Notes: a model not told the origin generated them from the sequence alone. A stretch of 62,753 bases of DNA, filler included, from Hausera hauseri (GCA_046269625.1; 11 parts of 11 records of this genome joined end to end with filler, not necessarily neighbours in it), one strand, 5' to 3'. Positions 4,866-59,151 are shown, numbered from the whole stretch's first letter. A program made the numbers and translations.

Positions 4866-6640
4866 CAGTGGAACCTTACTTAACTATCACCACAATAGAG
4901 CGACTACCTCAGAATTGCGACCACCATTTTTGGCACCGTTCTCATTCATTGTGGCATTATGCATATTGCATATTCCTTGGAGCGACCACCTCACTAATTC
5001 GGCATAGCGATCACCTAAGCCAACCCCATTTGCATTGTTCACCTCAATAATACGACCATGCGGGCGCATAGTCTCACTGATAATTTGGCCATCAATACAT
5101 AATATGAGGGCTGTAGCGATGCTGCATGCGATAGCATAGCCACAATACAATCTGCTGGTCTCATCACACCGACAGCTCGGCCACTTGCATAACGTGCGTG
5201 TGTGCTGTACAATATTTGGGCGCTGTATCAATGCAACTTTTGTCACAATCATGTCCAAACTCGAAACGAACAGAGCTTCCTTTGTCTCAGAAAATTAAAA
5301 TCATTTGAGACGGTGGCAACAAATTCAGCAAATACTTAAAAGAAAAGCAGAGATTGAAGCAGCGTTTGAAAGCGACTTGCTCAATTTGGACACCAAAAGA
5401 ATTAAAGATCGCGTGGAGAATCTAGAGCATGACACTCTCGTGTGGCAGTGGTTCCAACGTATGAGAGGAATGGTCATACCTATCTCCCTTTTCATGATAC
5501 AGCAGAAAGCTCTTGAGCTGGTGCAGGAAATGCAAATTGAAGACTTCAAAGCCTCAAGTGGCTGGTTACAACGGTAAGCATAGGCAATTGTCGAGATTGT
5601 GTCTGAATTACATTGTTCACATTATTTCGTCTTCCTGCCTTTCCTCGTAGACTCAAGAACCGCCACAGCATCAGTGGATATGCTGTGTGGAAAAAGTGCG
5701 GGTGTCAACAGTGAGTGTGAAAAACTGGAAGAGATTGGCGGAAATCATTAAAGGCTACCATCTCCGCAACATATTCAACATGGACGAAACCGGGCTATTT
5801 TACCGAGTACTACTAGACAAAACGTTTTCCGAGAATGGGAGTGCGTGCAGCAAGAGGTAGTATAGCAAGGAGAAGCCGTCTGTGATGTATCTCCATGACT
5901 GGAGAATTTGAGAAGTCACTCGTCATTGGAAAGAGTGAGCATCCCCAATGCTTTAAAAACATCGCAACAAAAGATTTCCCTGTGAAGTGGGTAGCCAACA
6001 GTCGCGCGTGGATGACTTGAAGTATCTTCATGAATGGATCAGATGCTTCGACCGAAAAATAGTACTTTCAGGGCGTAAGGTTTTCCTCATCTTGGATAAT
6101 GCGACAGTCCACCCGCGCATTAATGACTTGACGAATGTGAAGCCTGTGTTTCTGCCGCCAATTGCCACAAACGTCCTACAGACTTTGGACCAGGGCATAA
6201 TACAGGCCATGAAGATTCTCCATCGACGATAGCTGTTGCAGTCCATCATTCGACGTGCAAAAATATGTACACACGTCTGGATGCCATCTACTATATCTCT
6301 TGTGCAATGAAGGAATTCAAGTCAACGACCGTTCAGCGCTGCTTCGAAAAGTATGGGAAAACTACAATGGACTATAACAGCTTGGAAACCTTCATCGGTC
6401 AGTTGCAACTGACTGCTCCTATGTCAGCTGCCGAATACCTGCTGGTGGATCTGGATATTCCATGCATTGAGGAGCCAATGGCGTCAACGGAAATTATGAA
6501 TGAGTCCGCAACATTTCCCTCCAAGGACGACTCCTCTGACAAGGAGATCGTGATTCTTCCTGCTTGTGACCCTCCAACTTTTTCTGACGTGATTTCCTCT
6601 GTAATGCTGATTCGGGAGTACGTCCTACATCATATTTTCC
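4866..6640 (+). mobile_element. Decayed Tigger-like (TIGD4/6-type) transposon, left end plus transposase, 3' end lost
   Basis: TA+CAGTGGAACC terminus and subterminal GCGACCACCT-like repeats (~4898-5015). Motifs FKASSGWLQR-LKNRH, NIFNMDETGLF, LILDNATVH, VFLPP..TNVLQTLDQGII. Confidence 0.88.
5574..5650 (+). other. 77-nt GT-AG spliceosomal intron in the Tigger transposase
   Basis: GTAAGC...polypyrimidine...TAG. Removing it restores SSGWLQ(R)LKNRHSI. Confidence 0.8.
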
Positions 6641-6779
6641 GTGCAGCATTCTCAGTTGCATATTGCCCAAACCAAAATCTCAGACTTTTCTCTAGCTATA
6701 CTCGCAACATGAATTCCTCCAAATGAACACTGGCATCTTGCACTCTGTAACTCACCTTGATGTCTCATGTTCAATTTGT

Positions 6780-9024: not shown

Positions 9025-11305
9025 TTTCCGCACGCAAGTTGTATCGTTTTTAATGTCGGTCCTAATTCATCTGTAGGAAATAACCCTTTTCTTTCATAAT
9101 CTGTTAATTCGGTCGTCACACCCGTTAACCATATTTGTACAAGTTCTCGTTTATTTGTTAATTCTGATTGCGTGATATTATATTTATTCTTATAAGTCTC
9201 CAATTCCTTGCCGAATTCATCTAGCTTCGTAGCTCTTTGCTTTTCACGAATCCGTAATTCTTCTATATCTTTAACTTAATTTGTCAATTGTCGCATCTTG
9301 TCGTCATCTATTTCTGCCATTGTTGATAGTAGTGAAATTAATTCGTACATTTCTTTTAGACTTTTCGAATCTGGATCTATTGCATCAATCAGTCTCTTTA
9401 CAAATCTAGCTTCGTCCGGTGTGAGGCGATGATCCTTGATTATTTCTATTAATTCAGCATGACAGTTCTGGTCAATGTCTGATGCCCATTCGAAAGGACG
9501 ATGTAGATATTTTAGTACTTCTAACGCAATACGATGATTTGGTCAAATATCCAACGTCGATAGATCACATATGGATATTTCCTCTACAGGCCTTGTTATC
9601 AAGTGTCGTACACCTTCCAGGCGGACACCTTTAGTTTCATCGATAAGGAGGAGATCTTTTCCTGTTTCGCTGATAATTCTATTTCTTTGATCATTGTTTA
9701 CAATTATTCTGTGAGTTTCATTTCCTGATCCTTACTCATAAATCTTAGTCTCAATAACGAATTAAAATCAACTCTGAGGTTTGCCTCTATTTTGTAAACA
9801 TCTAGGTTACGAAGTATTTACTTTAGCTGTTGTTTTAATATCTGTTCACGTTCCGAAAACTTTTTAGACGATACTTCGTTAGACCCACCAATCTGTCTAA
9901 TAGTTCAATCCATTCCTTGACTTGGTTATCTATCATTGGTTTCGCATTTATTACATTTTCTAATCGTTCGTAGGCGTCGTTTAATATATCATCTGGACCC
10001 TTAATATAGTCCATTACTCCTTTAACATAGTTAACTTTCTTCTTGTATTCGTTCAATTCCAAAATGCATGTTTTCGTTATGTTTTGTACTTCTTGATTTT
10101 CCGCATACGTTATTTTATTCTTATATCTGTAGATTTCAGAGCGCCTTTTATCTTGCGAGGCTGTGCATATTCCTATATCCGCATATTCTTTTGGTGCGTT
10201 GAATGCGATCTTGCACATTTCTATTATGAGAGGAATATCTACAGGTTCTATGCCTAGCATTGAAAATTTGTTTTCATCCAATTCGTATATTGGTTTATTT
10301 TTGAGGTGATAAATTACTGCACTCTCTATTTCTGCCATCAAATTCGCTAAGTTCCATTTTGTTCGCTTCTGTTTTGGATCTCTCTCTAGCGTCCTTAGTA
10401 ATCCTTGGGCGGTCGCTACTTTACTCTTGATTTTTATTTCTTGATTATTCCATGTGTGGCTGAATTCGATTCCTCTTTTTATCAATGAATCTAGTTTCGT
10501 CTTCCATTCTTCAGTTGACTTCTCCACAATTTCATCCATTTGCTTTTGATCTTTCTCCTTGTTAACGTCTTCTTCAAGGTATTTTTTAAATTCTTTATAC
10601 ATTCTTTCGGCGAATTGCTGTTCTTTTCCTGACACATCTACTTGAGCTTTTATACGCCTTAATTTTTCCAGATTGTGACGTATAATATCCGCATCTGTCG
10701 GTGCCATCCTAATTTCTTTCAATTTCTCTGCATTTTTCCAGGATTTTCGGATCACCCACATCTTTCCGTCTAGCCTTTTAATTCATTCCGTGCCATCAGT
10801 CTCGCTTTCGCTATCGGTTAATGGACATATCTCATTTATCTCAATGTTCACGTCTCCTACTGTTACGCTAGTGCTTGGAATATCCGTAACTTCAGGAAGA
10901 TCCACACCTGGAGTGTCTAAGTTCGCAGTGTCCTCTATATCCGCATCTCGGACTTGAGTTATCTCTGCATTATCTCTTTTTAATGGCGATCTTGATTGAC
11001 CCTTCGACTTCCTTTTAAGTGATGGACTACGACCTCTATTTTTCGTTATTTTAAGAACTAATGGGGCTATATATTCACTTTTGATTTCGTCAGCCACATC
11101 TTGACGTCCTTCTGTCAGATTTTCAGATCCAGCGTTCAGGTCTACACTGGGCGATACTGCTACTATTTCAGTTTCGTTCACTTTTTTTGCCTCCACGGGC
11201 TTTTTAGGTACATTCTTCTTGCGAACCATATTACTATTGTCTGACGCAATTAATTGCTCATATTTCGTTCGAGGTTCAATTAATTCGTGATATACTTCTA
11301 CTATT
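9025..11305 (-). pseudogene. Long uncharacterised coding region following the Gag zinc knuckle (no protease or RT motifs)
   Basis: In frame with Gag past a single TGA (~11306) into ORF 10783-11229, then ORF 9835-10761 and further coding-like sequence to the contig end. Confidence 0.6.
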
Positions 11306-12800
11306 CAAACGTTATCTTCATATTCCTTTCGAGCCTTCAGGATTTGCGGATTATCTGTTTCTCGTTGGCTTTTCAGGTATCGTCGTGAATCTTGAATATC
11401 CAATATTGCGTTTATGTCACCTCTGGGACCATACTTCGCCTCTAAATCTTCTTGTGTCTTAATCATGCTTGCTTTAGTTGGTTCGGTAAATGAAACGTTT
11501 CGCGGATTTGGGCACGATCTAGCTATGTGACCTTCCTTGCCACATGTGTAACATATTAAGTTTCCGTTTCTACCAATCCGTTGTCAACCGTCCTCATTTA
11601 TGGGGGATTTTGGGCGACTATCGCTCCTAGAATATCCCTGGTTTCCAAATTCTATCCTACTACTTCCGTCATTTCTGTTTTCATTGTTTCTAAAATCATT
11701 GTATCTGTTTTCGTCCTTATGCTTAAAACTTTTTTATTGCTCTTATAACCATCTTGGTTCGAGTTGTAGTTTGGCTTTGCCGCGTTCATACTATTTAAAT
11801 TCCGATTATTGTCAAAGCTTTTATTTCCATAACGTGGATTCCTATCCATCCTATTATCGAAATTTCGATTTCGACTATGTTTGTGGTATCGTCCACTATT
11901 TCTATTTCTATCGCTGCGCTCATTGCGCTCATTTCGTTCGACGTTCCTGTCGTGTCTTTCATTTTGCCTAGCATGTCTGTCTAACGCCATTTCTAGGTCT
12001 TGTGCCAATTGTAATGTTTTCTCAAAGTTTTCTGGTTTCGGTAAAATGAGTTGCTTCACTAGGTCTCTTGACCAAATACCATAAATAAATTGTGGTGTCA
12101 TCATTACATCCAAATCTGACGGAACTGCCTTTTCCACGGCTCTACGTTCGGCGTCGTCTTTTGCCATAGCCATATTTAAAAATCTTAGTGTACTAATATA
12201 ACTATTTGCTAACTTTTTTGAAGCAGACGCAAACTGGGTGACCGATTTGCCCTTCTGTTGCGTCCTATTTTGAAATGCCATTAACTTTTGTTGCGGAGTT
12301 ACCGTCGGTAGTAATTTCCTATTTAATGCTCCTACAAATGACGATCAATCTCTTTTTTCTTCGTCCATTAACTCGACGTAGGCATCTGCGGCCAAATTCT
12401 TTAAGTTAAGCTACAATCGTCCAATCATCTGCTGAGATTCTAACCCCATGCCTTCGGCGTGAAACTTATAAGTTCTTAAAAATTCATTCAGTCCTTCTGG
12501 ATCGCCGTCGTATGCAGTGAATTCAATGATTCATACGTGTAAATGTCTAATTTCTGTCGAGGCGTATCGGCTGTTATTTTATTCCTATTTGCGTCTATTC
12601 TATTTTCTATTTTACGTCGGTTGGTTACTTTATCCGGAACTTTAAAACTTGCTTCTTGATCTTGGTCTAATAACCCTGTTAAATTTTCTCGTGGCTCGAA
12701 TAATGTGCGCTTTTCGTATGAATTCGTTCGTACTTTACTACGGGTTCGTCTTATGTTTAAATTTTCCTTACCGTTTAGGTTTAAATATTCTGATCTACTA
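11306..12800 (-). pseudogene. Ty3/Gypsy-like gag with CCHC zinc knuckle
   Basis: YDGDPEGLNEFL, FQNRTQQKGKSVTQFA (MHR-like), QFIYGI, then ICYTCGKEGHIARSCP (~11510-11557). Some stops and frameshifts. Confidence 0.85.
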
Positions 12801-12970
12801 TGTCTGTCAATAATTGTGCTTTAAAACCCTCTTATTTAAATATAGGACCTTATATCCAGAAATTTTATATATCCTATTCGAATCAATTAATTGGTGCGAT
12901 GTGCTGATCGCTGGGTGTGTAATTAATTAACCCTGAGCTGAAGTAATAGTCTAGCGAGTCACAAACTGTT

Positions 12971-12984
12971 CTGCTAGGTCGCCA
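12971..12984 (-). promoter_or_regulatory. Primer-binding site TGGCGACCTAGCAG
   Basis: TGG-initiated, 2 nt after the LTR-terminal CA. TGGCGACC suggests a tRNA-Arg-type primer (unverified). Confidence 0.75.
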
Positions 12985-12986
12985 AA

Positions 12987-13805
12987 TGTTAGAATTTGGG
13001 TTGGGCCCTAATCGTCTTCAACTATCTAACAATAATTTATCGTAAATTTTATTATTAGCAGATACAGTTTACCGTTCTCGGTAAATCAGGATGTACCTAC
13101 TAGACTTGTATAGATATTAATTCGTGCGGGTACTGCGTGCTTTTCCTGTGCGTCAATTTAATTTCGATTCTCTCTTAGCTATATAAGTTAACTAGATTTT
13201 AGAAACTTAGGGTAGTCTAATCGATCTTAAGGATCGAAGGAAACTATATAAAGAAATTTGAGACTGTTAAACGCACAAAAATATAATACCGATAACAATC
13301 ACGTCAACTGAACCTTTTGATCGCTTTCTAATTTCAATGTTTCCTCTGGTTTCTAACTTCTCTAACGAATCTGTCGTTCAATCGTTTCGTATCTCTTTCG
13401 TACTGCGAACTGATTCAAATTTGTCTTACTTCTCTGAGGAATTCGTTGCTTCAATAGCTTTGATTCATTGCACTGGAGATCAACTCCAAATTGTGTTCTA
13501 ATTCTGTTCAAATTCTGTTCTCATCTCTACAGAAATCCGTCGCTATATATACTATACTGGTTTGACGATTACGTCATTTTCATTCAATTATTTTCTGATT
13601 AAATTTCATTACTTCGATTATCTAATCGATTACTGTGCATTTTTGCCAATTTCTACCACCAAATATTTACACAAAGCACTATTACATCATTTGTAAATTC
13701 TGGTTAACTATTGAATATTCCAATTTATCTGTACACATATCGAATAATTACATAATAGTATTTACATTTTACAACGATGCACTACAGTCTTTACATTTCA
13801 TAACA
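12987..13805 (-). repeat. LTR (~819 bp, TGTTA...TAACA)
   Basis: Inverted TGTTA/TAACA ends, PPT immediately upstream and PBS immediately downstream on the minus strand. Confidence 0.85.
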
Positions 13806-13817
13806 TTTCTCCTCCCT
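13806..13817 (-). promoter_or_regulatory. Polypurine tract AGGGAGGAGAAA
   Basis: Purine run abutting the LTR TG. Confidence 0.8.
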
Positions 13818-13865
13818 GAGCGACACCTTGTATGTGCCTATTGCGTCAGGAGAGGTGGCGTTCGT

Positions 13866-15048
13866 TTATTGTCGGCACAGCAGTTCCAGTCTACTCCGGC
13901 GACTACTGTCGTCAACTATGTTCGCGTCTAACGTATAACTAGTACTGGGTTGATTCGGAATAGGAACAGATCTGTTGCATTCACCGTTTGAAAAATATTT
14001 TAGGCCGTTTGCTTCCGCTCGGCACACTGGACACGTTGTTTTCCCATTATCCAACGTCCATGTCTCTAAACATGTTCGGCAATATTTATGCCTGCATTCT
14101 TGGTTGTCCAATTTAACATGTCCTTGCCAGATATTTTCACTACATACTGTGCAGATATTTTCGTCTTCGTTTGTGTTTTTGTCACCATCTAAATCGACTT
14201 TGGGTACAATTTGGATTCGTTCGAGTACTAGCCCATCCTGGTCGGAATTTAGGTAACCGTATAATTCTTTTTGCTAGGTATTGATTGAACTTTTTCTAAG
14301 GTCATAATTTACGGGAACAAACATCCAGTCCATGATGGTTTCTTTGTCTAAGTCAAGAATTTTACCTTCTTTCTGGTAAGTTTGGTATTGCCTTTTACAC
14401 ATCAGTTTAATTGGGTTATTTACGGGAACAGTCAACTTTCCAGTCCTTTTTGACTTAAATATTGGGGCTAAATATTTCCTTATTTCGGCGTTTTCCCAAG
14501 CGTATGCTCCATCTGGTATTTCTCGTATTCCAGCACTTTTTACGTAAAACATCGCTTCCTTTATTTTATGGTGGCTACAATACTCAGCGGTTACTAGTAA
14601 ACTGGGGAAATCTTTATTTGTTGAAAAATGTACATTTTCTTTCGATCTTTTCTTTTTCAAGACATTCACTTCGGTAAAGATGATATCGTTGTCTGACTTC
14701 CTCCTTTGGGTTTGAGTTCTAGTCTTTTTTTTTTATTTCTTCTGAGTGCATCTCTTTTGTTTTGTCCGGGTTTTCGGTGCTCGTAGATTATTTTTTGTTG
14801 TCATTATTTCGTTTTGGATTTCTGTCTTTTCGGGCTTTTTGTGTTTTGCACTTACCTTTCGGTTATCTTATTCCTTATTTTTCTTTTTGAATAGATATTC
14901 GTACAAGGATAATTTTCTTTTTCCGGTGGCGAATGTTTTCTCTGTTTTGTTCTTTTTGTTTCCTTCTGGGTTTTTTGGTACTTTGAACATTTCTTGACCC
15001 TGGGATTTTTGATTAGTTGATTCTGAATTTTGACTGGCGCTGGGTTTG
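13866..15048 (-). pseudogene. 3' accessory ORF of the LTR element: Lys-rich linker, novel conserved domain and C3HC4 RING finger
   Basis: CTVC-x14-CRHKYCRTC-x12-CPVCR at ~14019-14153, in frame with ORF 14274-14669 across one TAG. Homologous to 19434-20309. Confidence 0.85.
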
Positions 15049-15148
15049 NNNNNNNNNNNNNNNNNNNNNNNNNNNNNNNNNNNNNNNNNNNNTTAATTAA
15101 TTAANNNNNNNNNNNNNNNNNNNNNNNNNNNNNNNNNNNNNNNNNNNN

Positions 15149-16430
15149 TAAGAAAGAAACCCGGCTCGAACGACAAAATCGATCTAGAAGAACAGAAAAT
15201 GCCAAAGTGGTATCCACCTCCTCACTCATTGAGGCCAGAGATAACTAAAGAGGTACAGCGGATGTTAAAGGCCGATATAATACGACAGAGTTAACGATCA
15301 TGGTACTAACTTATACTTATGGGTAAAAAGAAAGGAATTACAAAACATCGATTTTGTATAGATTATCGGGCATTAAATACGCTAATGATGAAAGATTTGT
15401 ATCCTCTACCATCAGCAAAAGAAGCTCTACACAGACTATCAGAAGCAAAATGGTTTACCACTCTCGACTTACAATCGGGATACTGAAAAGTGGAAATCGA
15501 AGAAGAAGACCGATATAAGATAGCGTTTAAACCACACGATGGCGTATACAAATTTAATGCCATGCCTTTCGGCATCATCACTAGACCCGCTATTTATACT
15601 AGAATGATGAATAAGATGCTCATGGGACTTGATCATGCATTCGCGTACTTAGGCGACGTGATAATAGCATTAAAGTGGAGGAAGAACACTTAAAGGACAT
15701 TGAAGATACACTCATGCTGCTAGAACAAGCAGGGCTGAAACTAAATGGAAAGAAATGCAAATGGGCACAGAACGCAGTATCGTACCTCGGACACATAGTT
15801 GGAGAAGGAGGATCAAACGTTTAACTACTACCGCATACCACCCACAATGTAATGGAATGGTCGCAACAGTCATTCGCATATTATCAACAGTAGTGAAAAA
15901 AGACGAAAAGGATTAGGATGAATTCCTAGAAGGAAAACAATTCGCGATTAATACGACTCCACATCCAGCAACAGGGTTCACACCGTTCTTTATGATGTAT
16001 GGACGAGAGGCAATCTTACCCACAGATCTAGGCATGACACCGTGCGAAAAGAATCTCGATGATTTAAAGCAAAACTTTGCCGAAATCTTACAGACAAGAT
16101 TGCAAAAGTGTTGGAAAGTGGCAAAAACATTATCACTTGAATATCAGGAACAATTTAAAAAACAATATGATAAAAAGTCTAAGCCTAATGATCTGAAAAA
16201 GGGAAATTGGATTTATATACATTACCCAGTTGCGAAGAAAGGTACATCCTTGAAATTAACACGTACCGGAAGAGGACCATAAGAAATCGTCCGCACAACG
16301 CCAACCACCATCTATGTTAACAAAAACGGAAAAGAAAAGGTCGTATCAATCCAAAGAGTAGTTAAAACAGATATAAGACCAGCTAAACACTACAATCTAA
16401 GACAGGGAGAAAACAAGACCTCGTCAATTG
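15149..16430 (+). pseudogene. Gypsy pol remnant: RT N-terminal part joined to the integrase C-terminal part
   Basis: RFCIDYRALN, LYPLP, FTTLDLQSGY, AFAYLGDV, then an abrupt jump (~15810) to IKRLTTTAYHPQCNG, GFTPFFMMYGRE and LTRTGRGP(Y). Confidence 0.9.
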
Positions 16431-17807
16431 TCACTAGACCAGTATCTTACGCACAGATAATAGTAGCCTTATCGTTGATTGCTATCCTAACGCCTAAGTC
16501 TAACGCTCAATGGTGGGTCGATGAAAATTCGTTGAGCGATATATATGGAATACGGAAAAGCAGACTAAAACCTTCAGCGCCAAAGGAGGGAATCCCAGCA
16601 CACAAATCAGAACAAGAAGGCGAAAAATTTTTACGAGCAATAAAATTAGATTATTTTTCGCCAGAAACCCCATGTGTTGGATTTAGGTTACCAGGCAAAT
16701 TCAAATACTACTCCATGATGTATTAAACCAAGCCGAGTCTGATTGTAAATTCGAGCTAGAGGATGATACAGCTTGTGTAACGTAGAGTACGGACATTCTT
16801 ACGCCCTCAGTTGTCGTGCATATTTATTCAACTGTAATGAAGTACACTCTGAAACAAATCTGAATTCACACTTAGTTATACTGCAAAATTATGGGGATTA
16901 TCTTAATATACAGCTGGAAGACCTGTTTCAATGTACTGACCCATTGAAACCTAAAAGATAATTGTATCCAAATAAACTCAAAAGGACGATTGATTAAAGG
17001 ACGAGTAATCACAGTTCAATTCCTGAGAGAGGACAAAGCAGCTTATAACCAACAATACTGTCAAATTGACGTTGCAAGGCCCAATAGATGTTGTAAGCTA
17101 CCTCAAGGGTATATATATAGAATTCGGTTAGACTTATACGAAGTTCGACCAAACCAGTCGAGTATTTTCCTGGGAAGCTGCCAACTAAAAATCCAATTTG
17201 GAGAATACCACCGGAAGTGACAACAAGTGGAATTACAACTACAGAAACGAATGTAACTATTCCAACTTCTACCAAAATTCCCCAGACAAGTGGATTACCT
17301 CCGAAGAATCTAGAAACGATTCCAATAAAATATTGGACACAACAGCATAAAATAACATTCATTGTAGAAGAAACACTTAATTACGATGTAGAAATAAGCT
17401 GCCGAACGGTACACAATAATCAGAAAGTAACACTGGTTAAGCGCAGTTACCGAATTAGATTCACCGATCTGAAACCTAAAACGGACTACATAATACAAGT
17501 GGGCGCAGAGAATAAACAAAGTAGAACATTTACAGTACGAACCTTAAATGTGATTATATTAATCAAACCACTGACGAATGAGGAAGCGGAAGGCAAATTT
17601 ACGACTACCGTTGAAACGGAAAAGCTAACTAAATGGACAACCACATCAGTAATATTAATTATTTTAACATCAATATTTGCTTTCGTAATTCTAATTGCGT
17701 TTTGCCAATTGATCTCCAAAAACTGTTGTAGTAAGCGTCATAAAATTACCGAGAGAGAACTAAGGGTGATGGTACCACAGAACGAAATTAATGATGGAAT
17801 AACCTGA
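16431..17807 (+). pseudogene. Env-position type-I membrane protein: internal signal sequence, beta-rich ectodomain, Thr-rich stalk, FN3-like domain, TM helix, Cys-rich tail
   Basis: IIVALSLIAILTPKSNA-Q signal in the integrase frame; TTSGITTTETNVTIPTST; FTDLKPKTDYIIQVGAEN (FN3 L-x-P-x-T-x-Y-x-I-x-V-x-A); TM SVILIILTSIFAFVILIAFC. Confidence 0.75.
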
Positions 17808-18479
17808 CAACTGCACATCGGGTTATTCCACCATCAAACAAAGAATTGATTCAGATTTAGAACAATACTTTGTTTTAGGACTGACCCTTATTTTGTATTT
17901 TCTTTCAGAATGGTAAGTATAATCAGCCGAATTTGAGTCGACGAATTCCTATAAGGATACGCAACAGTCTTCATTCCAACATCGAAAGTTATATACAGAA
18001 GGATAAATGACGCATTACAAACAGAAACGTACGTTGAATACCGGAAAGAAAACGAAATATTAAATGACTTGAAGGGTGCCACAGAAGAGAACCACACAGT
18101 TGTCCTATAGGCGATGCGCGAAAACAATCAAGCTAAGTCGTATGGCCTTAAGGAACTGATCCGAAATAAAATTACCCAAGTGGAAGATATATTTATTTAT
18201 CTAGCTAGAAAACCATCTAGAATAGAAAACCAACGATGGAACTGTAATGAAGGGCGCCGATACCGATTTAGTACATTCAGAATAAGCGGACAAGGCCTAG
18301 AAAGTATTAAATATGGTCTAGAATTTAGAATAGCGACCCCCCTGTTAAACTTATGTTTGAGGTGATACATAGAAAAAACTGCAACTTAGGCTTGCCAGTA
18401 CTAGAATTCAAACAAATCCCAACCGAAGCGGAGAAGGACGAACATCACCAGTCATTTAGGCTAGTACAGGATGGTCGTA

Positions 18480-18960
18480 ACATAAGAATTATGGCTATAA
18501 ATTGTGGCAGAGGAGACGATGGGTATGGGAAACCTATCGAAGTACCTATTGAAGAAAGAGATGGAACTGAGCTTTACTCTACCATTATAAACCCCGGAAA
18601 CATGTTCAAGAATCATATGCAGAAGTAAATGGTTTAAGAAAAAAACAACTTATAAGCGGAAAAGACATTCAACAGGTCTGTTCTGAGTTAGACCATTGCC
18701 TCTACGGGTGTATGATAACGGGATACAACGTAAAACGGGAAATCGAGCTATTAAGGATATCCGATGCAAATATTGCCGGACTTAGGGAAATAGCTGCTCA
18801 CCCGATGGTTCAGAATCGAATGAAGAAGACCGTACAAGGAAGAAATAGGCCGACCACACCGGAAGCCTTCTTTAAGTTGATGATTGAATCAATGAATAGT
18901 AATTTAGGCAGAATTTCAAGACTTCTAACAACCAGCCAATGTTCAAATATTTAAAAGAAA
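18480..18960 (+). pseudogene. DEDDh/RNase T-like 3'-5' exonuclease domain in the 3' accessory ORF
   Basis: IMAINCG..KPIEV....DGTELYSTIINPG....NGLRKKQL..GKDIQQVCSELDHCLYGCMITGYNVKREIELL..LREIA follows the REX4/DnaQ pattern. Exo I acidic residues are altered in this copy. Confidence 0.65.
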
Positions 18961-19433
18961 TTTACAAATCATTAAAATGGAAACATAAGTGGACTCCCAG
19001 GAACCCCACGTATAATCTACGCAATTCTTTAAAACCCGAAACAATAAAAACCGAATATAGAAAGAATATCAAACCTTATTCCCCAGCCAGAACCGTCCAG
19101 CCCATAAGTACACATAGCCTTATGGTTACACTACAAGAACCTATGGAAAAACAAGACGAAAACAAAACCGACTTACAAACGAAAAATAAAAGCAACATTA
19201 TGCCAAAGAAACAAAGAGAGGAACGAAGACTGGAATTAACGACTAAGAAACCAAAATTACAAGAGAAATCCCAATTCAAGAAGATATCATCTATTTATAA
19301 CTACCTATTCAAGAAGAAAAGAGAAGATGAGGAACAAAAAGTGGAGAAACAACAAAACAGTCCAAGTACCTCACAGAAGATAGAACCTATATAAAAGAGA
19401 ATTAAAAGTCCCATAATAACTGAAATTAATGCC

Positions 19434-20309
19434 GTGATAGGAAAGAGAATAAAAGGGAACATACATTGCAGAACAGCTCAAGATTTTCCCAGAATGCTGG
19501 TAACCACCGAATATTATAGTAAAAAGATAATAAAGGAAGCCATGTTTTTCATCAAACGTGCTCCAGCAATAGAAGTCTTTGAGAACACCTACGTATGGGA
19601 GAATTCCAAGCTAGGAGCTTACCTCACATCAGTCTTCCGTTCAAAAAGAACCGGGAAAATAATAGTTCCCGTGGATAAACAAATTCGAATATTGCTAAAG
19701 AAACAATATCAGAAATATAAAATAGAAGGGAAGATTCCCGACCTAGATAAAGATCTCATGGCGAATTGGACCTTGAAAGAAGTAAACTGTGACCCTCGAA
19801 AAAGCACCATTAACCCCAAACAAAAGGTGATACATGGATATCTGTATCAGGACGGGGATGGTCTCGTGTTCGAACCCATCGAATTAATTATTCAAGCTGA
19901 CTTGGATAGAGACAATTGAGACAAGGAAGATAACGAATGTCCCGTATGTGATACATACTTAAGGCAAGGCTATGTAGTTATAGACAATAAAAATTGCTGC
20001 CACAAATACTGTCGAGATTGCCTAGAGAAGTGGACACTCGACAACGAAAAGAGAACATGCCCCGTATGTCGGGCAGAGGCCACGGAATTGAAATACTACT
20101 CCGACGGGAGTTACACACGAATTGTTCGGATCAAACCTTACCATAGTTACAATTTGGAAACAAGCCCAGTAACCAATCAAGACCAACGAAATTCACCAAC
20201 AGATCTGCCTGAAAGAATAAATCAATTAAGACAACCTAGGACCTTGGGCGCCACCTCTTCTGACGCAATAGGCTACTTCGAGGATGCCGCTCAGCGAGGA
20301 GAGATGTAA
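19434..20309 (+). pseudogene. 3' accessory ORF C-terminal half: novel conserved domain and C3HC4 RING finger
   Basis: CPVC-x14-CCHKYCRDC-x12-CPVCR at 19938-20072, in frame across one TGA (19917-19919). Clear homology to 13866-14669. Confidence 0.85.
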
Positions 20310-20489
20310 CATAATGGATTGTAAATAATCGAAAACGCGAATTGTTTGCTCGAGCAGTGATTGAATGTAGATTGGAAGTATCAATAATGAAATTGTTGAA
20401 GAATTTAGATTATCAAAATATGTGACAATTACTCGGTAATTGAAGAAATGATCGAAAATGCATTAAAACACGAAAAATTCAATTTAATT
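20293..20489 (+). repeat. PPT (AGCGAGGAGAGA) and start of the 3' LTR (TGTAAC at 20305), truncated by contig end
   Basis: Same arrangement and sequence context as 13806-13860 on the related element. Confidence 0.75.
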
Positions 20490-21267
20490 NNNNNNNNNNN
20501 NNNNNNNNNNNNNNNNNNNNNNNNNNNNNNNNNTTAATTAATTAANNNNNNNNNNNNNNNNNNNNNNNNNNNNNNNNNNNNNNNNNNNNCATACTCATAC
20601 GCATCTGCACTATACCATATTTCTTCATGCACCGAACATCTCACCTGCAACTGCCTCCACTGCAGCACATAAACACTAAAAACTAAGGTCAAATTTTTTA
20701 AATTAGTGCATTGGCACATGGTACAAAATATGTACATCCAATAACTTGGCAGCCTGACCACAGAAATAAATGAACATGTGAAAATAATAATAAAAGAAAT
20801 GGAAAAGAAACAAAATAATTATGTACAATTAATTGGAGAGGAATGAAGAGGCTTAATCAAGCGTAACTAAAAGAGTCTACTTACAGTTTTTCATTCTCAG
20901 AAAAGTGAAATAAAACACTATGCAGTAACAAATGATGTAAGGGTCTGAGTGATCATTCTTTATGTCTTCCATTTGCTTGTCACAGAAGTGCACTACATCT
21001 AAATGTCCTCAGAGTGCAGGCAAATTAGTGTGACTGGTGAAATGTGCATCTCTTTGCATATTTCCTCTGTCGGCAGAGTGTTGCAGTGTAAATCTATTCA
21101 CTGTTGTCTCCATTTACTGCTGTGAACCACTCTGTCTTAATGTCTTGATGTAAAATCTCCATTCATCCTCCCTCCTGTAACACTGAAGGATTTAGTAGGT
21201 GAAAGTACAAGAACTCCTCTGTTGTGTTTATTGCTGTCTTTTCAACAAATTGTTGAAAATTTTAAAA

Positions 21268-22280
21268 ATGTCCAATCGAATTTTGGTGATAAACTTTCTT
21301 GAATTATCATCTTACGAATCTTTCATGTCGTTGACTGAATGGTACCAGATAGAACGTCGGGTGATAATTCGAAGATTACTGCTACAGATATTCATAGTTT
21401 GCATCGAAGTCAGTCCGAAATCTCTTGATGCTTGTCTTCAGTCAATGCTTTCTCTCGAACTGATACGTGATCCTCAGACAGCGAATATTGATACGAAAAT
21501 TTTCACATATGCCGCACTGTTGTTAAGTTCCTTAGTTAACAGTCCACATTCCATCAATGTTGATTTGCATGATAGATTGAATGTTGACCTCTGTACAGCG
21601 TTGCTTTGTAAATTGAGCGAATATTACAATTCCATATTAAATTCGACTAATTCACACAATTCTGATGATATCGCTGACGAATTGACAGGAGAACTTGTTG
21701 ATACAAACAGTTTTACACTTCATGTGCCGTTGTTGACAGACGATGTCATTTTCATGTTGTTGCTGGCGCTTCACAAAAAATTCAGCAATGTCAAAACAAA
21801 TCCAGTTTTGATGAGCCTTCAGTCGAAACCCGAATTTTCCCGATTGTTTGTAAAAAAAACTAATTCAAGAATTTAATCGCGATTCCGATCCCGTTATTAA
21901 AAGTTACCATGATGAAAGTTTTGTTCGTGACAGAACAATCGAAGAGAATAATTCGGTCAGTAAGATTTTATATGACATCTGTTCAAACCGGTATTTGTCG
22001 TATATAGTTTATCTTAATGATGCTGATGTTATTATTGATATAAAATCCAGACAACTAAATAATTTGCAAACAAATAGTCCTGAATTGTCGGAATATCTCT
22101 TTACTAAATTTGATTATCACGAACCCTGATTACATGGAGAAGGGAAAATATAAAGGGTACGATATAAAATAAGAGCTAATGTTTCTGAAAAATACATCAC
22201 ACAACGACAATCGGAATTTTTTGCTTGATGTCTATAGTGATGTAGCATTGCGTATAATCAGTAGCAAACTGATATGTAGC
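21268..22280 (+). pseudogene. NCKIPSD: NCKIPSD/SPIN90 (DUF2013)-like C-terminal region, frameshifted and intronless
   Basis: EWYQIERRVIIRRLLLQIF, SMLSLELIRD, YAALLLS, LLLALHKKF..NPVLMSL, FNRDSDP, VYLNDADVIIDI..RQLNNL...EYL. Confidence 0.7.
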
Positions 22281-22329
22281 AAAATATTTGAAATTTTAGC
22301 CAGACATTTAAACGCCTTAAAAGCAATAA

Positions 22330-23700
22330 CTTTTATCAAAATCCAACTACAGAAGAAATCAGCTGTTTTAGAAATTTCAATTACGTCGAAATAATCCTAC
22401 AATTATGTACGTGGTTTATGTGCTCATACTATCCGGTGTTGGACTCTGGAATCAGTCAGTGAAAATGATATTGTGGAAAATAAAAAGGTTTAGTTGCTTT
22501 CTGCAGAAATAGTCGATACCATTGTTCAAGAAATGCTCTCTATTTTACAAATAGGCTATGTAAATTATAAGGGCGATTTTGTTTCGCAGTCCAAAACAAC
22601 CGACGAGATTCAACAAATTTTTCGAACAACTTATGATCTATGCAATATCCCAATGCTAACGTTACATTGCATGGCAACATCTATAACTCGATAGGATTGT
22701 GAAACAGAAATTCTGTCGGATATTGTTTTCCATAATAAATGTAAACTTGACCAAAGAGTTCGTGATACAGCACAGATTACACTCATGAGATTGATGCTAA
22801 ATGTTCTTAAACTTGATTACGGATTGAACTCTAAATTCGTTTTGTCAAATGTTGTCAAATTAAAAGAGACTGTCACAGTTTCTTCAAGAATACTCAGTAA
22901 TTTGTAATTTAAGTTTTTTCATTTAGTTCCTTTAGGTTCAAAACCGGTATTGACCGAAGTAAAATTACCTCTTCCTCAGGTTCTGAAAAGCCTTTTTTCT
23001 GCTAGTTATACCGTGTCATCTATGTATGTTGCTGTTTCTCGTCAATCTATTTTACTAACATCGATTGTTGCTTGTCTGGGCGCAAGAAAATTGCGTCATT
23101 TACACTCGTATTGTTATCAATTTGTGATTAGTTCTCTTGGTGTTTGGGGACAGAGTACAACAGCAGTTTTGATGGCTGTTCTACGTAAACTTTGTAAGAA
23201 TGTTAAGGCCGCTGCGGAGGTGTATGATATATATTCCAAAGATCGATATTTTTCTTGTGATAACCGATCGTGCGATAGGTGGTGAGTGGATATTTTGTCC
23301 TGTATTATTATGTTTCTTGTATAATTTTTAGTGAAAATAACACGATTTTAATGGATTATGCTATTACAACTTTGGAATGTCTTAAGGCCGTTTGTCATTT
23401 CCTTTTGCTCGATGAGGCATTGAAAAGTTACCAGATTCAAGAAGAAAAGGGATCTTCATCTGAATCTAGTCTCTTCAGTTCATTGTTTAATCGTTCTAAG
23501 GTTGGTTATTGAAATGAAAGTTGTAATAATTGGTTGTAGGACTCATCCAAAGAAAACGTCATGAGCCCTGGTGCCCATATCATCGAAGCCAGACAGAATA
23601 TGTTGAGATTGATGCCAAAGGTTTTGGAAAGCTTATTAATACTTTGGGAAAGTGTTTCGATCTCTGAAGCAAGTACGAAATTTGATCGCATTTTCATTTT
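22330..23700 (+). pseudogene. DOPEY/DOP1-like internal fragment with short introns
   Basis: RQSILLTSIVACL..LHSYCYQFVISSL..LCKNV; DYAITTLECLKAVCHFLLLD; EARQNMLRLMPKVLESLLILW. GT-AG introns at ~23282-23331 and 23501-23539; in-frame stops upstream. Confidence 0.65.
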
Positions 23701-37632: not shown

Positions 37633-40600
37633 ATGGAGCCACATATAGATGATCATAATGACATCCTAACTTTCCTCGAATTAATAAGAGATAATCGACC
37701 TCATACTACAGTTCACATTGGCACATTCGATCTAAATGCAATGGTGGACACAGAAGCCAGCGTTTCTTTAATAGCAAAACATACGATACCAGACGAATAT
37801 CAGCCTAGAATAAAATTGGCCTCAAGGAATGTACTGGTACGACTTCAGTTTTTCAGCATTGTTTGAAACCATATAGGTATTGGAAATGTGAACCTAGAAT
37901 TTGTTGGAAAGAACTAAAAGTGACTTTAGGTGTGATGACAACTTTAAACCCCCGATGTATTTTAGAAATGAATGCATTGAAAGACTTAGAAGGATTTCAC
38001 ATAAATTTCTAGTCAGGATCGATTTGTCCAAATAATGAGGATATTCCAGCTAAATACGATAAAATGGACATTTAGATAGGACATATGGAGAAAATACCAC
38101 TTAATTCTATGATGGTATACATGCCAGAACATTTCCACATAACAAAGTAAGTGAATTTATACCACGGATATTTCAAAATAGATTGTTATTGCCACATTAT
38201 TGTGTTAAGATAACTGAAGGTACAATTCCCATTGAAGTTTTGAATTCCTTTCCTAAGTATACTACAATGTGTGCAAGGATGAAATTAGGTCAAGCACATA
38301 AAACTACTCGTCAATCTAAATATGATAGTAAAATCGCAGCAATCACTGAAGATAAGGGAATTAAAGCAGAATACATGTTCAATGTTGTTCTTACAAAAGC
38401 AAAGAAAAATTTATCTGTCAAATACCTTGAGAACTTTTCAGACCTTATTTTTTAGTACATTGACATTTTTGCCAAAAACGAAACAGACATTAGATGAACG
38501 GACCTATTCGAGTTTAAACTAGCATTCATGATGGATCCTCAAACCGGAAAAGAAATATACCTACTACGGCAGCCGACACCAAAATGGTATCCAACTCCAA
38601 AAGCATGCCAAAAGGAAGTTGACGAGCAAATACAAGCCATGCTAGAAAAAGGCATCATTGAACCTATTCAATCACCATAGCCATCGCCTATAGTTATGAC
38701 AAAGAAAGCCAATACAACGAAACACCTTTGTGTGTAAATTACGTCACACTGAACAAGCAACTTGCGAACCATATTTATCCAATACCGCGAATACGAGATA
38801 TTATTGACGAGTTAAAATTATGCAAATACTTCACCACCTTGGACCTGTAAGTGGATTTGGGTAGATACCAGTTGTCGAAAAGGATCGTTGGAAGACAACG
38901 TTCAAAACACATGCAGGTGTTTATCAATTTACACGTATGCTATTCGGACTGCAACTGCACCTACGTTCTTCCACGAATTTATTAGACTAGTTTTAAAAGT
39001 AGTACGCGGTCTATCATATATAGACCATATTTAAATTGCGTCAAAAACATGGTCAACACACTTAACCGAATTACGAGAAGTATTCAATTAAATCAAAATG
39101 GCTGAATTGAAACAGAATCCAAAAAAATGTGAATGGTACAAAACTAAAGTCAAATATCTTGGATTTGTTGTCTGAAATCAAGGCATATCTACCAGTCCAA
39201 ATTTAATATCCAAAATCTTGAAATATCTCCCACCAACAAGCGTATATGAGATGACAGTCTGGTTAGGATTAGGAGGATTTTATGCTACGTATATTCAGAA
39301 TTTTGCAGAAATAAATCAACCCCAGTATAAATTGCTTAGAAAGGATCAGAAATGAGAATGGACGGAAGAAAATCAAGAACCATAGTATCAGCATCCATAT
39401 TACGATATCCGGATTTTTCACTACAATTTATTCTGAAAACCGACTCCAGCATTAAAGCTACTAGTTACATTTTAGAGCAACAGTGTCCGGAAGAGACAAC
39501 TAAGCATGTAATTGCACATGGAAGACGAAGTTTAAATAAGGCCGAAAGGAAATATTCTACCACGGAATTACAATTATTAGCAATACGCGACGGTCATAAG
39601 GTCATAATATTCACGAACCATAAAGCACTACTTCCTTTGCGTTCAGACAATAGACATGCATCAAGCCGACTCTAAAGATGGACGTTAGAGCTTTTGAATT
39701 ATGACATCGAATATAGATATTGACCCGGAAAGGACAATGCAGACACATATGCAACTTCTAGATTACCTTATAAAAATATACTTGTTACCCTTCATAAACC
39801 AAAAGACAGAGAAAAAGATAAACAGTTAAATGAGAAAATTATTAATGTCATGTTACAGGAACAGAGGAAAATTCAGGCTCGAAATATCGAAGCCTTACAA
39901 AATCATAATCCATTTATTGTCCAAGTCAAACACTTAACAAATGGAAAGACGGTTGATTAAGTATCAAGTCATATTCAGAAATTTTACCGACAACATATGG
40001 AACAATTGGACATTGAAAATGGAATATTAAAACTTAAAGTTCGTAAAATTAGCTAATTATTGTACCCAATTCAGCAATCAAGGCAGTTATGCTGCAAGAG
40101 CATGACTCACATCTAGCGGCTCATCCGTCCTTAAACAAGACATTGAAACGCATTGCCACAAAATATTATTTACCTCAAATGAACAAACATATTGAGGGAT
40201 AAATATGTTCTTGTAAAATGTGCGCTACCAGAAAGGATAGGGGATTCCGTGCAAAGCTTTTTTTAAGAAGTCTTCTCCAAGCACGACAAACTATTAAGGT
40301 TTGTTCGATGGACATTTCTGGATCATTTTCCAACATCGGAATCAGGATACAAGTACATTTTATCAGTTGTTGACTATAATTTCAGATATGTTGATCTAAT
40401 ACCTTTTAAAAATATGATCAGTTATACCGTCGCCGAAGCATTCTTTTATGATGTCGTAGCCGTACTAGTCACTTCAAAACAGTTATTGACTGACCGCGTA
40501 CCATACTTTATTAGCGAATTTTTCGAAAAATTATCAAAGATATTCCAGTGTAAACATCTGCTGACAACATCCTACCATCCGCAATGTAATCATATGGTTT

Positions 40601-41200
40601 AACGAATGAATCGGAGAATTCAATTATTCTATCAACAAAAGTTGCACATGACCAAAAAGATTGGTAACTAAATCTTAAAACCACAGCCTTTGCAATTAAC
40701 ACTACACCTACAAAGAGTACCGACCATTCGCCATTCGAACTGATGTTTGGCAGATTGCCACTTCTACCATTGGATACAGAGTTGTTGCCATCTTCGCTGA
40801 AAACAAGTGATTATATGGATGACCAATACCAAAACTTGTTAAAGAGACTTGAATATTTTCAAACGGAAGCCAAAATATAAAGCTGGTTATAAGAAAGGAT
40901 TTAATAAGAAAGCTCGTTTACATGCGCATAAAACTGCCGATTATATAATGATACATTACCCCGCCGTTAAGAAAGGAAAATCCATAATGCTAACACGTAC
41001 CGGACAAGGACCGTACAAAGTGGTAGATGTCCATCCTCAAACTGTTTTTATAGAGAAAGGGTAGGATAAATACGAAGCTGTATTTGTAAAACGAGTTACG
41101 AGAGACCCCGCCTCGTATAATGAATTCATACGACAAACAAAGCTATATTCACCGGAAGTGGTAAAACCTAAAGCAGCCGAATGATAAGAAATCTAATGGT
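37633..41200 (+). pseudogene. Decayed Gypsy pol (PR-RT-RNH-IN) of the large-element clade
   Basis: AMVDTEASVSL, PKWYPTP (shared with 15149-16430), FILKTDSS, TELQLLAI, HDSHLAAH, TSYHPQCN, HYPAVKKGKSIMLTRTGQGPY (shared with the 16200 region). Confidence 0.9.
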
Positions 41201-41236
41201 TACCGAGTTCACATAATATCGGGTAGATACTACGGT

Positions 41237-42620
41237 ATGGTTTTACTTATCCTACTCACGTTTTTCTGGAAACCTACAGCCACTTCAGACAACAATACTG
41301 ATGTACAAATAGCTAATTTCGAATTGGTCCAACGCACTACCATTACTCATGTCAACACAAGTAAACCTAGTATTTGCTTTAGGACGTATTTACCAGTATA
41401 TTCACGGCACGACGAAAATTACAAAAATTCAAGTCATCGGAGAATATATCGACCAGCTGTATAATCCCAGAAAAACACTATAAAACTTGTTATCAATTGC
41501 GATACAATACATCTTATAGCTATTACGTACTAGTAAAAACTTTTGATCACTATGAAAATCACAAATGGAAATCAGACATAAATATGCATATTCCAACTCA
41601 TGAGACCATCACAAGCCTGGCTAAATCAGACATAGAAAATTACGACGAGTTTTCCGCCCAATTCTTAGAGACTAATGTCGAAATCTCAGACGTAGATCTA
41701 AATCCCCCATCCATCAAGTTCCGAACTACACAACTATTGACCACTGGATATGAAATCAATATGTGGTATGATTCTTACGCCAGATATTTGCCTCAGCCAC
41801 ATTTCTGTCACCTCAGTGGAACACATGCTTAGACGTGCTGTACCCTCTGTACAGATGTTTGGTACTCAAATCGTTTTTATATGTACTTAAGGCTAAACTA
41901 CAATCCTAGTAACCGAATTCATTCTTACGGATTACTAATCTTTATCTTTGTCAAACATAAACAACTGAACCCGATCTCAAGCTCGGTTGCAAGTACAACT
42001 ACTGCAGCAAGACTTACTACAATTAATACCACATCAACTACAGGAGTAGTCATCCCCAAGAGTAGGATAAAGAAGAATGACAATTATGATGGTGATATTC
42101 TCAAATTAAAATTAAAATTAAAGCCGAAAATAAACAAACATATATTTCATACAAAACTTATGAAGGATTCCCCAATAAAAGTAAGATTAACACCTTACAC
42201 AAATCGAATTGAGATAATTCTTCCTCAGAAAATAAAAGAAGAAAATATAGTGATAACCTGCACTAATATGTATGGAAAAGTTTGAATCAAATATAATAAA
42301 AATAAAACGACCTTTTACGCAGAGTTAATTCCTGACACAAATTACCTAGTGTCGATAAAGGCATGGGATAATGGTAAACTTTTGGCAATAAAGACGTTGC
42401 CTATATGAACACATAAGATATAATGAGGAAGACGAAAAACTTAGAATAACCACATATGCACCATTAATAACAGATATATTTTACAAAATATTGGTGGATA
42501 TTCGATGTAATAGCTGGAGTTGGCACTACTGCATTTTTAACAGCTGTTTGGGAAGAGCAAAAGATGTCGAAAGAGAAGAACGTATGAATCACAACACTCA
42601 GTAATCCGAACAAACCGAGT
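41237..42620 (+). pseudogene. Env-position type-I membrane protein with Thr-rich stalk and FN3-like domain (decayed)
   Basis: Signal MVLLILLTFFWKPTATS; STTTAARLTTINTTSTT; YAELIPDTNYLVSIKAWDN (~42315-42372); TM-like YWWIFDVIAGVGTTAFLTAVW (~42489-42551). Confidence 0.65.
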
Positions 42621-44039
42621 TTATGCTACAATAGAACCCTACTCAGCCCTTAAGGATAGAACAAAAGAAACAGATGGAGAAACTAATGAATTACAGGATA
42701 TTGAAGGTACAGTATCAATAATATCAGACAGAAAAGAAAACAGACATACAACATTTTGTTTCATACCAATTTTAGTATTAAGATTCATTAAAAATATCCC
42801 TAAGAATCAATTGGAGGAATTGGTTACAAACTGTTCACTGAAAACCGTTACTATTGGAGGACTAATCATTATGGTTCAAATCATTACAAGTAGAATTTTA
42901 ACCAATCAGAGAAAACATAACTCAATGCAAATTTTCATTGCTCAACTGATCAAATTTAGCCAGTGTGTCAAAAACGATTATAAATTGGAGTTACTTACTT
43001 GAAATTCTGATAAAATGCCAAAACGAAACAACTTTCAGTATCAAGCTCCCAAAATGGGGAGCCTCAATCAAAGTAAAAAGCAAGTTGGAAATCAGACACA
43101 GACAGATCCTAGAAAAAAGAATATAACCCGAAAAATTCTGGCTATCATATTGTCATCTCATCGTGGAATCAGACGCCTCTCCGCCGCAGAACAAAACATG
43201 TCCATCGTATTCTACAAAAGGATAATACAACATCCTGGAGAAAAGATATGTAAATTCGGAGAGATTCCAAACTACTTCAAATGTGGAGAGCTTCGCAACA
43301 GACTACTCATTCCTCTTAAAATAGTCAAAATTAACACAAAATATCAACTACCAAAGCTAGCTGAAAATAATGTCTGAATCGCAATACAAGTAGTTTAGGG
43401 AAAAGTCGAAATAAAATTTCACGGATCAGATAAGGAAACTGATAACGTAAGTCAGAAGTCGGATAACGATGAAGACCAGATAGAAATTATACATAATCAG
43501 GAATCAATCCAGATTAATTAGCCTTGGGAACCAGACCGCATACAGTTGGTCACAAAAAATGATGACCATCAAATGACTTGAAATATTAAAGACAAAAATA
43601 ATTCATCACTGGCCAGAACCGATGAAGTTTAAAGAGGAACCATCAGAAAAAAAACTAGGGAAAGAAACCATAACATTTTATTGACAAGCAAAACGAGAAG
43701 CACGCGAATGGACTTCCAAAAAGCGCAAGCTGAATTCATCAAATGCATTATGGGATTTAAAGCCGTTGCCTTAGAGGTCCACAAAGTTTTTAAAGCATTG
43801 CACATACCAGTGACTATCGCTAGTGCAATATTCGACCCAATGAGATGTCTAGAAAGAATTAATGAAGAAGCAATCACCAACATAAGTCAAATGGCCAAAA
43901 CCATGGGATTACTGAAATACCAGAGTATCATTGTAGGTGTGGTGCCCACAGCGGTCGGTGCCGTTTGCCCATTTTGTCAGGCACGGTCGGGTTTTTGTTG
44001 CCGCCGCGTCGGGTCCATAGTCGGTCCCGATCTTCCGCT

Positions 44040-51421: not shown

Positions 51422-51423
51422 TG

Positions 51424-52209: not shown

Positions 52210-52242
52210 CTTGAAGACGGGTCACTCCAGGAAGTTCACCAA

Positions 52243-52795: not shown

Positions 52796-52823
52796 TACAC
52801 TTCCTTCCGGGGGAGTGGAGCGA

Positions 52824-54528: not shown

Positions 54529-54529
54529 A

Positions 54530-59075: not shown

Positions 59076-59151
59076 TTTTTGGATTGGTGAGTTGGGACGG
59101 TTAATATTAGAGAAACTGGAACGTCTATCAATGGTGTAGTTATGGTTAGTT

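Follow-up and report, generated by a model that had tools for sequence, protein, structure and literature searches.

Gypsy-like long terminal repeat (LTR) retrotransposons that carry genes other than gag and pol have been described in several animals. Bdelloid rotifers have the LTR retrotransposons Vesta and Juno, which carry a third open reading frame (ORF3) for a DEDDy exonuclease; ORF3s are described there as typically separate, spliced units (PMC5408684). Burro (GYPSM1), as reviewed in PMC6431247, comprises giant planarian Gypsy-like elements of >30 kb that have two to three CCHC knuckles and a giant polyprotein with domains related to ubiquitin and apoptosis; MATH, SUMO-like, BCL2, BIR, ankyrin, and F-like env domains lie between gag and pol. 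For env-carrying elements of Platyhelminthes, PMC13524379 gives the order gag-env-pol, and the words RING, exonuclease, and fibronectin have 0 occurrences in its main text. On the host side, the PML-1 PXL domain and Exuperantia are DEDD folds that lack catalytic acids and bind RNA or nucleic acids (PMC13659232), and Maelstrom and EXD1 are host DEDD pseudonucleases, as cited in PMC5408684. Here, we describe Gypsy-like elements in a 62,753-nt stretch from Hausera hauseri (GCA_046269625.1; "the window") that consists of 11 contigs of 4 to 8 kb, not necessarily neighbours. Two of these, contigs A and B, are highly likely to be decayed members of a Gypsy-like LTR retrotransposon lineage present in many copies, whose last gene, ORF3, fuses a DEDDh-like pseudonuclease domain to a RING finger.

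Contig A runs, in element orientation, from the end of ORF3 through a polypurine tract (PPT) into an LTR with TG...CA ends, followed after 2 nt by a primer binding site (PBS), a gag-like region with a knuckle, and >800 further codons. On contig B, reverse transcriptase (RT) precedes a deletion, beyond which lie the C-terminal half of integrase (IN), a membrane protein gene, ORF3, a PPT, and the start of an LTR. Comparison with a third contig, C, indicates that ~1.4 kb was lost by the deletion, comprising RNase H and the N-terminal half of IN. The pol order is that of Ty3/Gypsy elements: all four parts, protease, RT, RNase H, and IN, are present in contig C, and RT followed by IN in contig B. 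Reading frames are decayed throughout these three contigs, which are joined artificially in the window via N44-TTAATTAATTAA-N44 linkers (Table 1). Since RT, IN, the membrane protein gene, and ORF3 all lie on contig B, ORF3 is tied to pol. On contig A, one LTR lies between the end of an element and the start of an element, indicating either tandem copies with one LTR in common or an assembly that is collapsed or permuted. Under either reading, the LTR is flanked by ORF3 and the PPT on one side and by the PBS and gag on the other, which ties ORF3 to gag. The two contigs share the domain preceding the RING ("pre-RING domain") and the RING itself (tblastx E value, 1e-80; 51% identity over 258 codons) and also the 59 nt upstream of the PPT (83% identity; E value, 6e-10); the likeness of their LTR starts was not significant (p = 0.076). 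In both, the PPT is protein coding (13798-13817 and 20291-20309), and the first LTR bases make the ORF3 stop codon. The contribution of the window is that ORF3 is seen physically joined to pol, to a membrane protein fused to IN, and, via the LTR, to gag.

The identity of gag depends on its position and on the CCHC knuckle, since profile scans of the gag-like region of contig A gave no capsid match. The long post-gag region matched no Pfam, NCBIfam, PHROGs, or PDB entry above the cut-off. Contig A shares nothing with contig C in comparisons at the tblastx level; hence, the junction between the post-gag region and protease was not seen. A preliminary description of this DNA had drawn one composite layout from the three contigs. 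The order from pol to ORF3 (contig B) and from ORF3 through the LTR to gag (contig A) stands, and the passage from the post-gag region into pol is the part that was not recovered. The proposed size of >12 kb would hold if the pieces are additive, as they then sum to at least 12,959 bp (~13 kb). A PPT hairpin, also described as common to the contigs, was predicted beyond chance in contig A (z = -3.1), and as a shared structure it was ruled out for contig B (z = -0.2). Word-index searches did not find an intact polyprotein. These searches gave 0 related proteins among 1,400 candidates of 167 to 532 aa for the pre-RING and RING piece, 0 of 24 among proteins of 1,395 to 4,440 aa for the integrase of contig C, and, for that of contig B, only generic Gypsy Pols at 25 to 33% identity (7 of 342).

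ORF3 of contig B has a size of ~800 codons and encodes, in order, an N-terminal domain, the DEDDh-like pseudonuclease (~18480-18990), a low-complexity linker, the pre-RING domain (~19410-19920), and a C3HC4 RING (~19940-20070). A profile of the pre-RING domain gave two matches among 1.84 billion representatives. One of these, P0012, is a bacterial repeat protein and was discarded as spurious. The other, P0011 (E value, 3e-38), is an unbroken natural protein of 870 aa encoded on one 16,242-bp ENA contig. The ORF3 pieces of contig B match P0011 residues 58 to 869 in order at 37 to 45% identity, and the pieces of contig A match at 45%. Moreover, P0011 ends in QGGEML, and the same peptide is encoded in contigs A and B where the PPT passes into the first LTR bases. 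Since P0011 is unbroken and matches the contig B pieces in order, the exonuclease-like domain and the RING belong to one protein. The accessory cassette of the preliminary description, a membrane protein with an exonuclease and a RING protein, is found inside the LTR boundaries, ORF3 ending at the PPT/LTR in two contigs, with the modification that nuclease and RING are a single product. The N-terminal and pre-RING domains had no above-cut-off family in profile scans; the former gave a sub-threshold DUF5097 match only and no Atlas match. Locus scans gave no locus with relatives in metagenomes, prokaryote genomes, or viral contigs.

Identity between contig B and P0011 varies by domain. It is 74/168 in the N-terminal domain, 71/168 (42%) in the pseudonuclease, 69/157 in the pre-RING domain, and 43/72 in the RING, so that the pseudonuclease is conserved like its folded neighbours (42 to 44%, with 60% for the RING); the linker, at 35/134 (26%), is below the folded domains (Fisher p ≤ 0.004). 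Between contigs A and B, the ratio of nonsynonymous to synonymous differences (pN/pS) in ORF3 is 0.39 (95% interval, 0.32 to 0.47), with synonymous divergence (dS) saturated. In one public run, 9,111 related contigs fell on contig B and 3,742 on contig A, mostly at 80 to 95% identity, and covered 30/30 bins of each, the long post-gag region included; this run matches the stretch (word share, 0.38), may be the source of the window and thus not independent of it, and gives a depth that is not equal to copy number. Thousands of related contigs at such identities indicate many diverged copies rather than a one-off chimera. These data bear on two other origins, namely that the additional genes were picked up from the host as passengers and drift without selection, or that assembly merged unrelated repeats into a chimera. 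In favour of such an origin, the contigs are of small size and broken, and pieces of host genes (PP2A B56, SPIN90, and DOP1) lie beside elements in the window. However, the three versions of ORF3 are ~41 to 51% identical with the same domain order and the same PPT/LTR end, and the pN/pS ratio, the domain-wise conservation, and the coverage of every bin of contigs A and B all argue against drift or chimerism. The lack of a cellular homologue among the 1.84 billion representatives points the same way, weakly, animals being thinly sampled there. We consider passengers or a chimera highly unlikely. Summed depth, a poor measure, was ~11,000 to 14,000 over the intergenic segment 17655-18012, which contains a predicted splice acceptor, and ~200 to 600 in the flanking bins; this hints at conservation across more families.

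In comparisons with PDB, residues ~245 to 420 of P0011 matched DnaQ (E value, 1.6e-4) and the PolC exonuclease (E value, 4.4e-4). The domain also matched a PHROG exonuclease (E value, 1.1e-4) and had four weak DnaQ/PolC matches in NCBIfam. The RNase_T set accounted for 19 of 30 Atlas matches (best score, 0.92), and a plasmid 3′-5′ exonuclease matched the ORF3 domain in a pairwise comparison (E value, 2e-8). We assigned a DnaQ-like fold from sequence and language-model features, the subtypes matched being DnaQ, PolC, and RNase_T. P0011 and contig B (2/2 copies) both carry A-I-N in place of the Exo I motif of DnaQ, D-I-E-T (D-x-E); at Exo II, Asp is replaced by Met in P0011 and by Glu in contig B. 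Loss of Exo I common to two versions that are ~42% identical fits an ancient inactivation better than it fits decay. An exonuclease kept active by a rearranged catalytic site, trimming element RNA or cDNA or destroying small RNAs as proposed for the rotifer DEDDy ORF3, would be consistent with the DnaQ-like fold, with acids directly after strand 1 in both copies, and with the Exo II acid that contig B retains. The strand-1 acids, however, occupy non-matching positions in contig B and P0011, and the A-I-N of both copies and the Met of P0011 argue further against activity, making such an enzyme extremely improbable. Judged by its motifs, the domain is very probably a pseudonuclease without catalytic acids. 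The analogy to RNA degradation by arenavirus NP hence fails.

The RING scored above the Pfam cut-off for C3HC4 in 3/3 copies, i.e., contig A (13869-14273; E value, 1.5e-07), contig B (19920-20306; E value, 8e-07), and P0011. None of the three has lost any of the eight zinc ligands, and all retain the helix Trp and C-P-V-C-R, which in RING fingers have a role in E2 binding. AlphaFold modelled the RING part with a predicted local distance difference test score (pLDDT) of 62 to 75, and this part matched RING structures, with viral RING ligases matched only generically; both models were poor outside the RING. These features suggest that the RING is probably active as an E3 ubiquitin ligase.

Contig C was compared with contig B through pol. 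In six-frame translation of the window, PKWYP occurs twice, at 15202 (contig B) and 38579 (contig C), and HYPxxKKGxSxxLTRTGxGP twice, at 16220 and 40954; these shared motifs lie where they were first described and nowhere else in the window. The RTs of contigs B and C are 39% identical, and the RT of contig B is 27 to 42% identical to several Gypsy references. The two RTs group in a tree of 11 RTs with an ultrafast bootstrap (UFBoot) value of 87; P0009 was left out since it has no RT. For IN, identity is 42% between contigs B and C and 19 to 34% between contig B and any other. ORF3 had no tblastn match in contig C, and LTR, PBS, and PPT were not found there. By sequence, contig C is a distant relative and not of the same family as contigs A and B. 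The single lineage proposed for all three contigs is thus retained for contigs A and B, and for the grouping of the B and C RTs, and given up for contig C, a separate family without detectable ORF3.

In contig B, the sequence in frame with IN has a signal-peptide-like stretch (16451), a Cys-containing ectodomain, a Thr/Ser/Pro stalk, an FN3-like domain, a transmembrane segment (TM; 17649), and a short tail. The FN3-like stretch matched Pfam fn3 (E value, 1e-3) and Pur_ac_phosph_N (E value, 7e-6), both below the cut-off. Contig C has the same layout, and the sequence likeness of the two surface proteins was not significant (p = 0.08; Cys-Cys piece, p = 0.02; FN3 end, E value, 0.038). The membrane protein would be synthesised at the end of the Pol polyprotein, from which signal peptidase would free it. 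No Pfam or PDB match to an F-type or gB-type fusogen was found for either surface protein, with decay lowering the sensitivity of these comparisons, and the pieces in contigs B and C have 0 furin-type R-x-K/R-R sites. An infectious endogenous retrovirus that uses the FN3/TM protein for attachment or entry and ORF3 for immune evasion like ICP0 or arenavirus NP/Z could account for a signal peptide, stalk, FN3 domain, and TM after IN in contig B with a like layout in contig C, and for an accessory gene predicted to be spliced. The arenavirus nucleoprotein cluster was the second Atlas match to the nuclease fold (0.91; 1/30), and the RING model has its generic viral matches. Against infectivity stand the missing fusogen match and furin-type sites, the lack of any relative in viral contigs, and an ORF3 nuclease without acids; the arenavirus nuclease domain is active. 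We regard an infectious retrovirus as distinctly unlikely, and the virus-like character given to the lineage in the preliminary description is not upheld, no viral fusogen and nothing showing infectivity having been found.

A branch point, polypyrimidine tract, and CAG form a predicted splice acceptor directly before the ORF3 ATG, the only such site (1 in ~19 kb) on the sense strands of contigs A, B, and C. Hence, ORF3 is probably made from spliced RNA; specifically, it would be expressed from a spliced subgenomic RNA via the acceptor at 17881-17908. We propose that the dead nuclease fold may resemble Exuperantia and the PML-1 PXL domain in binding RNA, alone or in complex with protein, and that the RING may pass ubiquitin to a host protein encountered on the bound RNA. 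PML-1 also carries a RING, so that the combination of a RING with a dead DEDDh fold has a cellular precedent. ORF3 would thereby be an E3 ubiquitin ligase that recognises RNA and serves to remove silencing or restriction factors of the host, a proposal that as a whole we hold to be evenly balanced.

Several points weigh against this proposal. In the nuclease domain, an alignment made by eye places Leu and Cys at the His and Asp positions of Exo III in either copy, the comparison comprises two copies (contig B and P0011), and Pfam does not list RNase_T for P0011 at an E value of 0.1. A profile of five E. coli DEDDh sequences did not detect the P0011 domain, profile-profile comparison with hhalign gave a probability of only 39% (E value, 3e-4), and the AlphaFold model of the pseudonuclease is unusable (pLDDT, 34.6). 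We infer the link of P0011 to pol from its end motif, and the public run carries the dependence noted above. The activity and splicing of ORF3 are predictions, and a host defence factor as the target is a guess among several, one that we place slightly below an even chance. The same sequence evidence fits an ORF3 that serves the life cycle of the element itself, with the dead nuclease binding element RNA and the RING ubiquitinating Gag/Pol or the membrane protein for sorting, budding, or uncoating. Ubiquitin-driven sorting of retroviral Gag is established, and the element also encodes a membrane protein that could be a substrate of this kind. Retroelements normally recruit host ligases for sorting, however, and most Gypsy elements, the relative on contig C included, manage without ORF3; we consider a role in the element's own cycle rather unlikely.

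An RNA-recognising ligase aimed at host defence can be extended to an undescribed 13- to 16-kb Gypsy-like clade that encodes an RNA-targeted ubiquitin ligase degrading the small-RNA silencing machinery, a mirror image of host PML-1, plus a nonfusogenic FN3 surface protein, cut from the Pol terminus, by which particles would pass from cell to cell; taken jointly, these claims are speculative and unlikely to hold together. Counter-defence proteins have rarely been demonstrated in animal retrotransposons. The conserved fusion of pseudonuclease and RING, of which an unbroken natural form exists, offers a defined protein for asking whether an LTR element fights host RNA silencing via ubiquitin. If the protein is inert, it is merely another odd accessory ORF. 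The IN-fused FN3 membrane protein, unlike known env proteins, also widens the range of Gypsy cargo.

Table 1. Features of contigs A, B, and C, with positions counted from the first letter of the window
Feature	Position	Strand	Contig	Remarks
Contig A	9025-15048	-	A	
Long post-gag region, broken	9025..11480	-	A	>800 codons; mostly charged/helical-looking; in frame after knuckle, reaches contig edge
gag-like region, broken	11480..12820	-	A	single CCHC knuckle (E value, 8e-08)
PBS TGGCGACC	12977..12984	-	A	2-nt spacer from LTR; presumably tRNA-Arg type
Single LTR, TGTTA...TAACA	12987..13805	-	A	819 bp; AATAAA at 13053
PPT AGGGAGGAGAAA	13806..13817	-	A	also encodes ORF3 end GGEM
ORF3 3′ part, broken	13798..15048	-	A	Lys-rich linker, pre-RING domain, C3HC4 RING; 45% identity to P0011 573-833
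Contig B	15149-20489	+	B	
RT, broken	15151..15812	+	B	
IN, C-terminal half, broken	15813..16430	+	B	
Predicted type I membrane protein, broken	16431..17807	+	B	in frame with IN
Predicted splice acceptor	17881..17908	+	B	branch point, polypyrimidine tract, CAG; directly before ORF3 ATG
ORF3, broken by stops and frame breaks	17910..20309	+	B	stop in LTR start; colinear with P0011 58-869
PPT and LTR start	20291..20489	+	B	TG at 20305; cut by contig end
Contig C	36849-44462	+	C	
Protease-RT-RNase H-IN, heavily broken	37690..41150	+	C	Gypsy order; related yet distinct element
Surface protein	41165..42560	+	C	signal-peptide-like stretch, Thr/Ser stalk, FN3-like end, weak TM
Tail ORF pieces	42541..43930	+	C	no ORF3 match

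Outside these elements, the host-gene fragments, found as Pfam-type profile matches, mark the window DNA as eukaryotic. A SPIN90 leucine-rich domain (E value, 6e-12) lies near a DOP1 TPR match (E value, 8e-10) at 21199-23285; these are possibly captured or retrocopied fragments. The end of contig C (43938-44460) has a 13-base inverted repeat, TGTGGTGCCCACA, which may be due to chance, followed by a GC-rich stretch, and an uninterrupted piece of PP2A B56 (Pfam B56 E value, 1.9e-37); it looks like the end of another element with host cargo and not an LTR of the A/B clade. Three more decayed Gypsy pols, presumably of CsRN1 type, occur at 32124-36748, 48666-55465, and 55566-62753 and group (UFBoot, 99) apart from those of contigs B and C. 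The second of these contigs contains internal duplications of ~720 to 770 bp at 75 to 78% identity and a 99-bp repeat at 94%. ORF pieces at 2283-3620, 5299-6726, 23988-24858, and 30675-30968 are presumably pogo/Tigger, mariner, and LINE relics.

The lineage had been presented as a candidate new class. Where the data allowed a comparison, none of the findings named in the preliminary description as refuting it turned up: ORF3 ends at the PPT/LTR in two contigs, the family is multicopy, and the RTs of contigs B and C group. The term new class nevertheless overstates the case, as Gypsy-like elements with DEDD exonuclease ORF3s (Vesta/Juno; PMC5408684) and with ubiquitin-related domains (Burro; PMC6431247) have already been described. 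The literature searched, which lay outside subscription papers, supplements, and Repbase/GyDB/Dfam, had no paper on an LTR retrotransposon with a pseudonuclease-RING ORF or with an FN3 membrane protein, and the same layout was not found in passages of PMC6338049, PMC7264820, and PMC11410931.

Compared with host pseudonucleases, ORF3 is alike in having a DEDD fold that lacks the acids and would serve nucleic acid binding. PML-1/Exuperantia-type proteins, however, are host genes, several of them directed against transposons, whereas ORF3 is encoded by a retroelement and has the opposite domain order; no sequence relationship between the two was detected among the 1.84 billion representatives or in domain searches. 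Errantiviruses, the env-carrying Ty3/gypsy elements, also bear a membrane protein gene in an LTR element. Their env is of F type or herpes simplex virus gB type (PMC13524379), whereas the protein here matched neither and continues in frame from IN. Burro resembles the A/B elements in its large size, long noncanonical post-gag region, ubiquitination-linked domains, and proposed meddling with the host (PMC6431247). In contrast to Burro, and comparing by description, contig A has one CCHC knuckle, and the A/B elements have an FN3/TM protein after IN and a 3′ pseudonuclease-RING ORF; none of the Burro-type domains (MATH, SUMO-like, BCL2, BIR, ankyrin, or env) was detected in the >800 decayed codons that run from the knuckle to the contig edge. 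Vesta and Juno are likewise Gypsy-like with a DEDD-family ORF3 after pol, and other members have TM-bearing ORF3s; their ORF3 is an RNase D-like DEDDy protein with intact catalytic residues and no RING (PMC5408684). ORF3 here, unlike theirs, is DnaQ/RNase T-like, has lost the Exo I acids, and is fused to two further domains and a RING, and a second gene, for the membrane protein, adjoins it. We conclude that the A/B elements, which lack tested defining features of each of Vesta/Juno, Burro, and errantiviruses yet work like them as carriers of cargo, are a variant of cargo-bearing Gypsy elements and not a new class.

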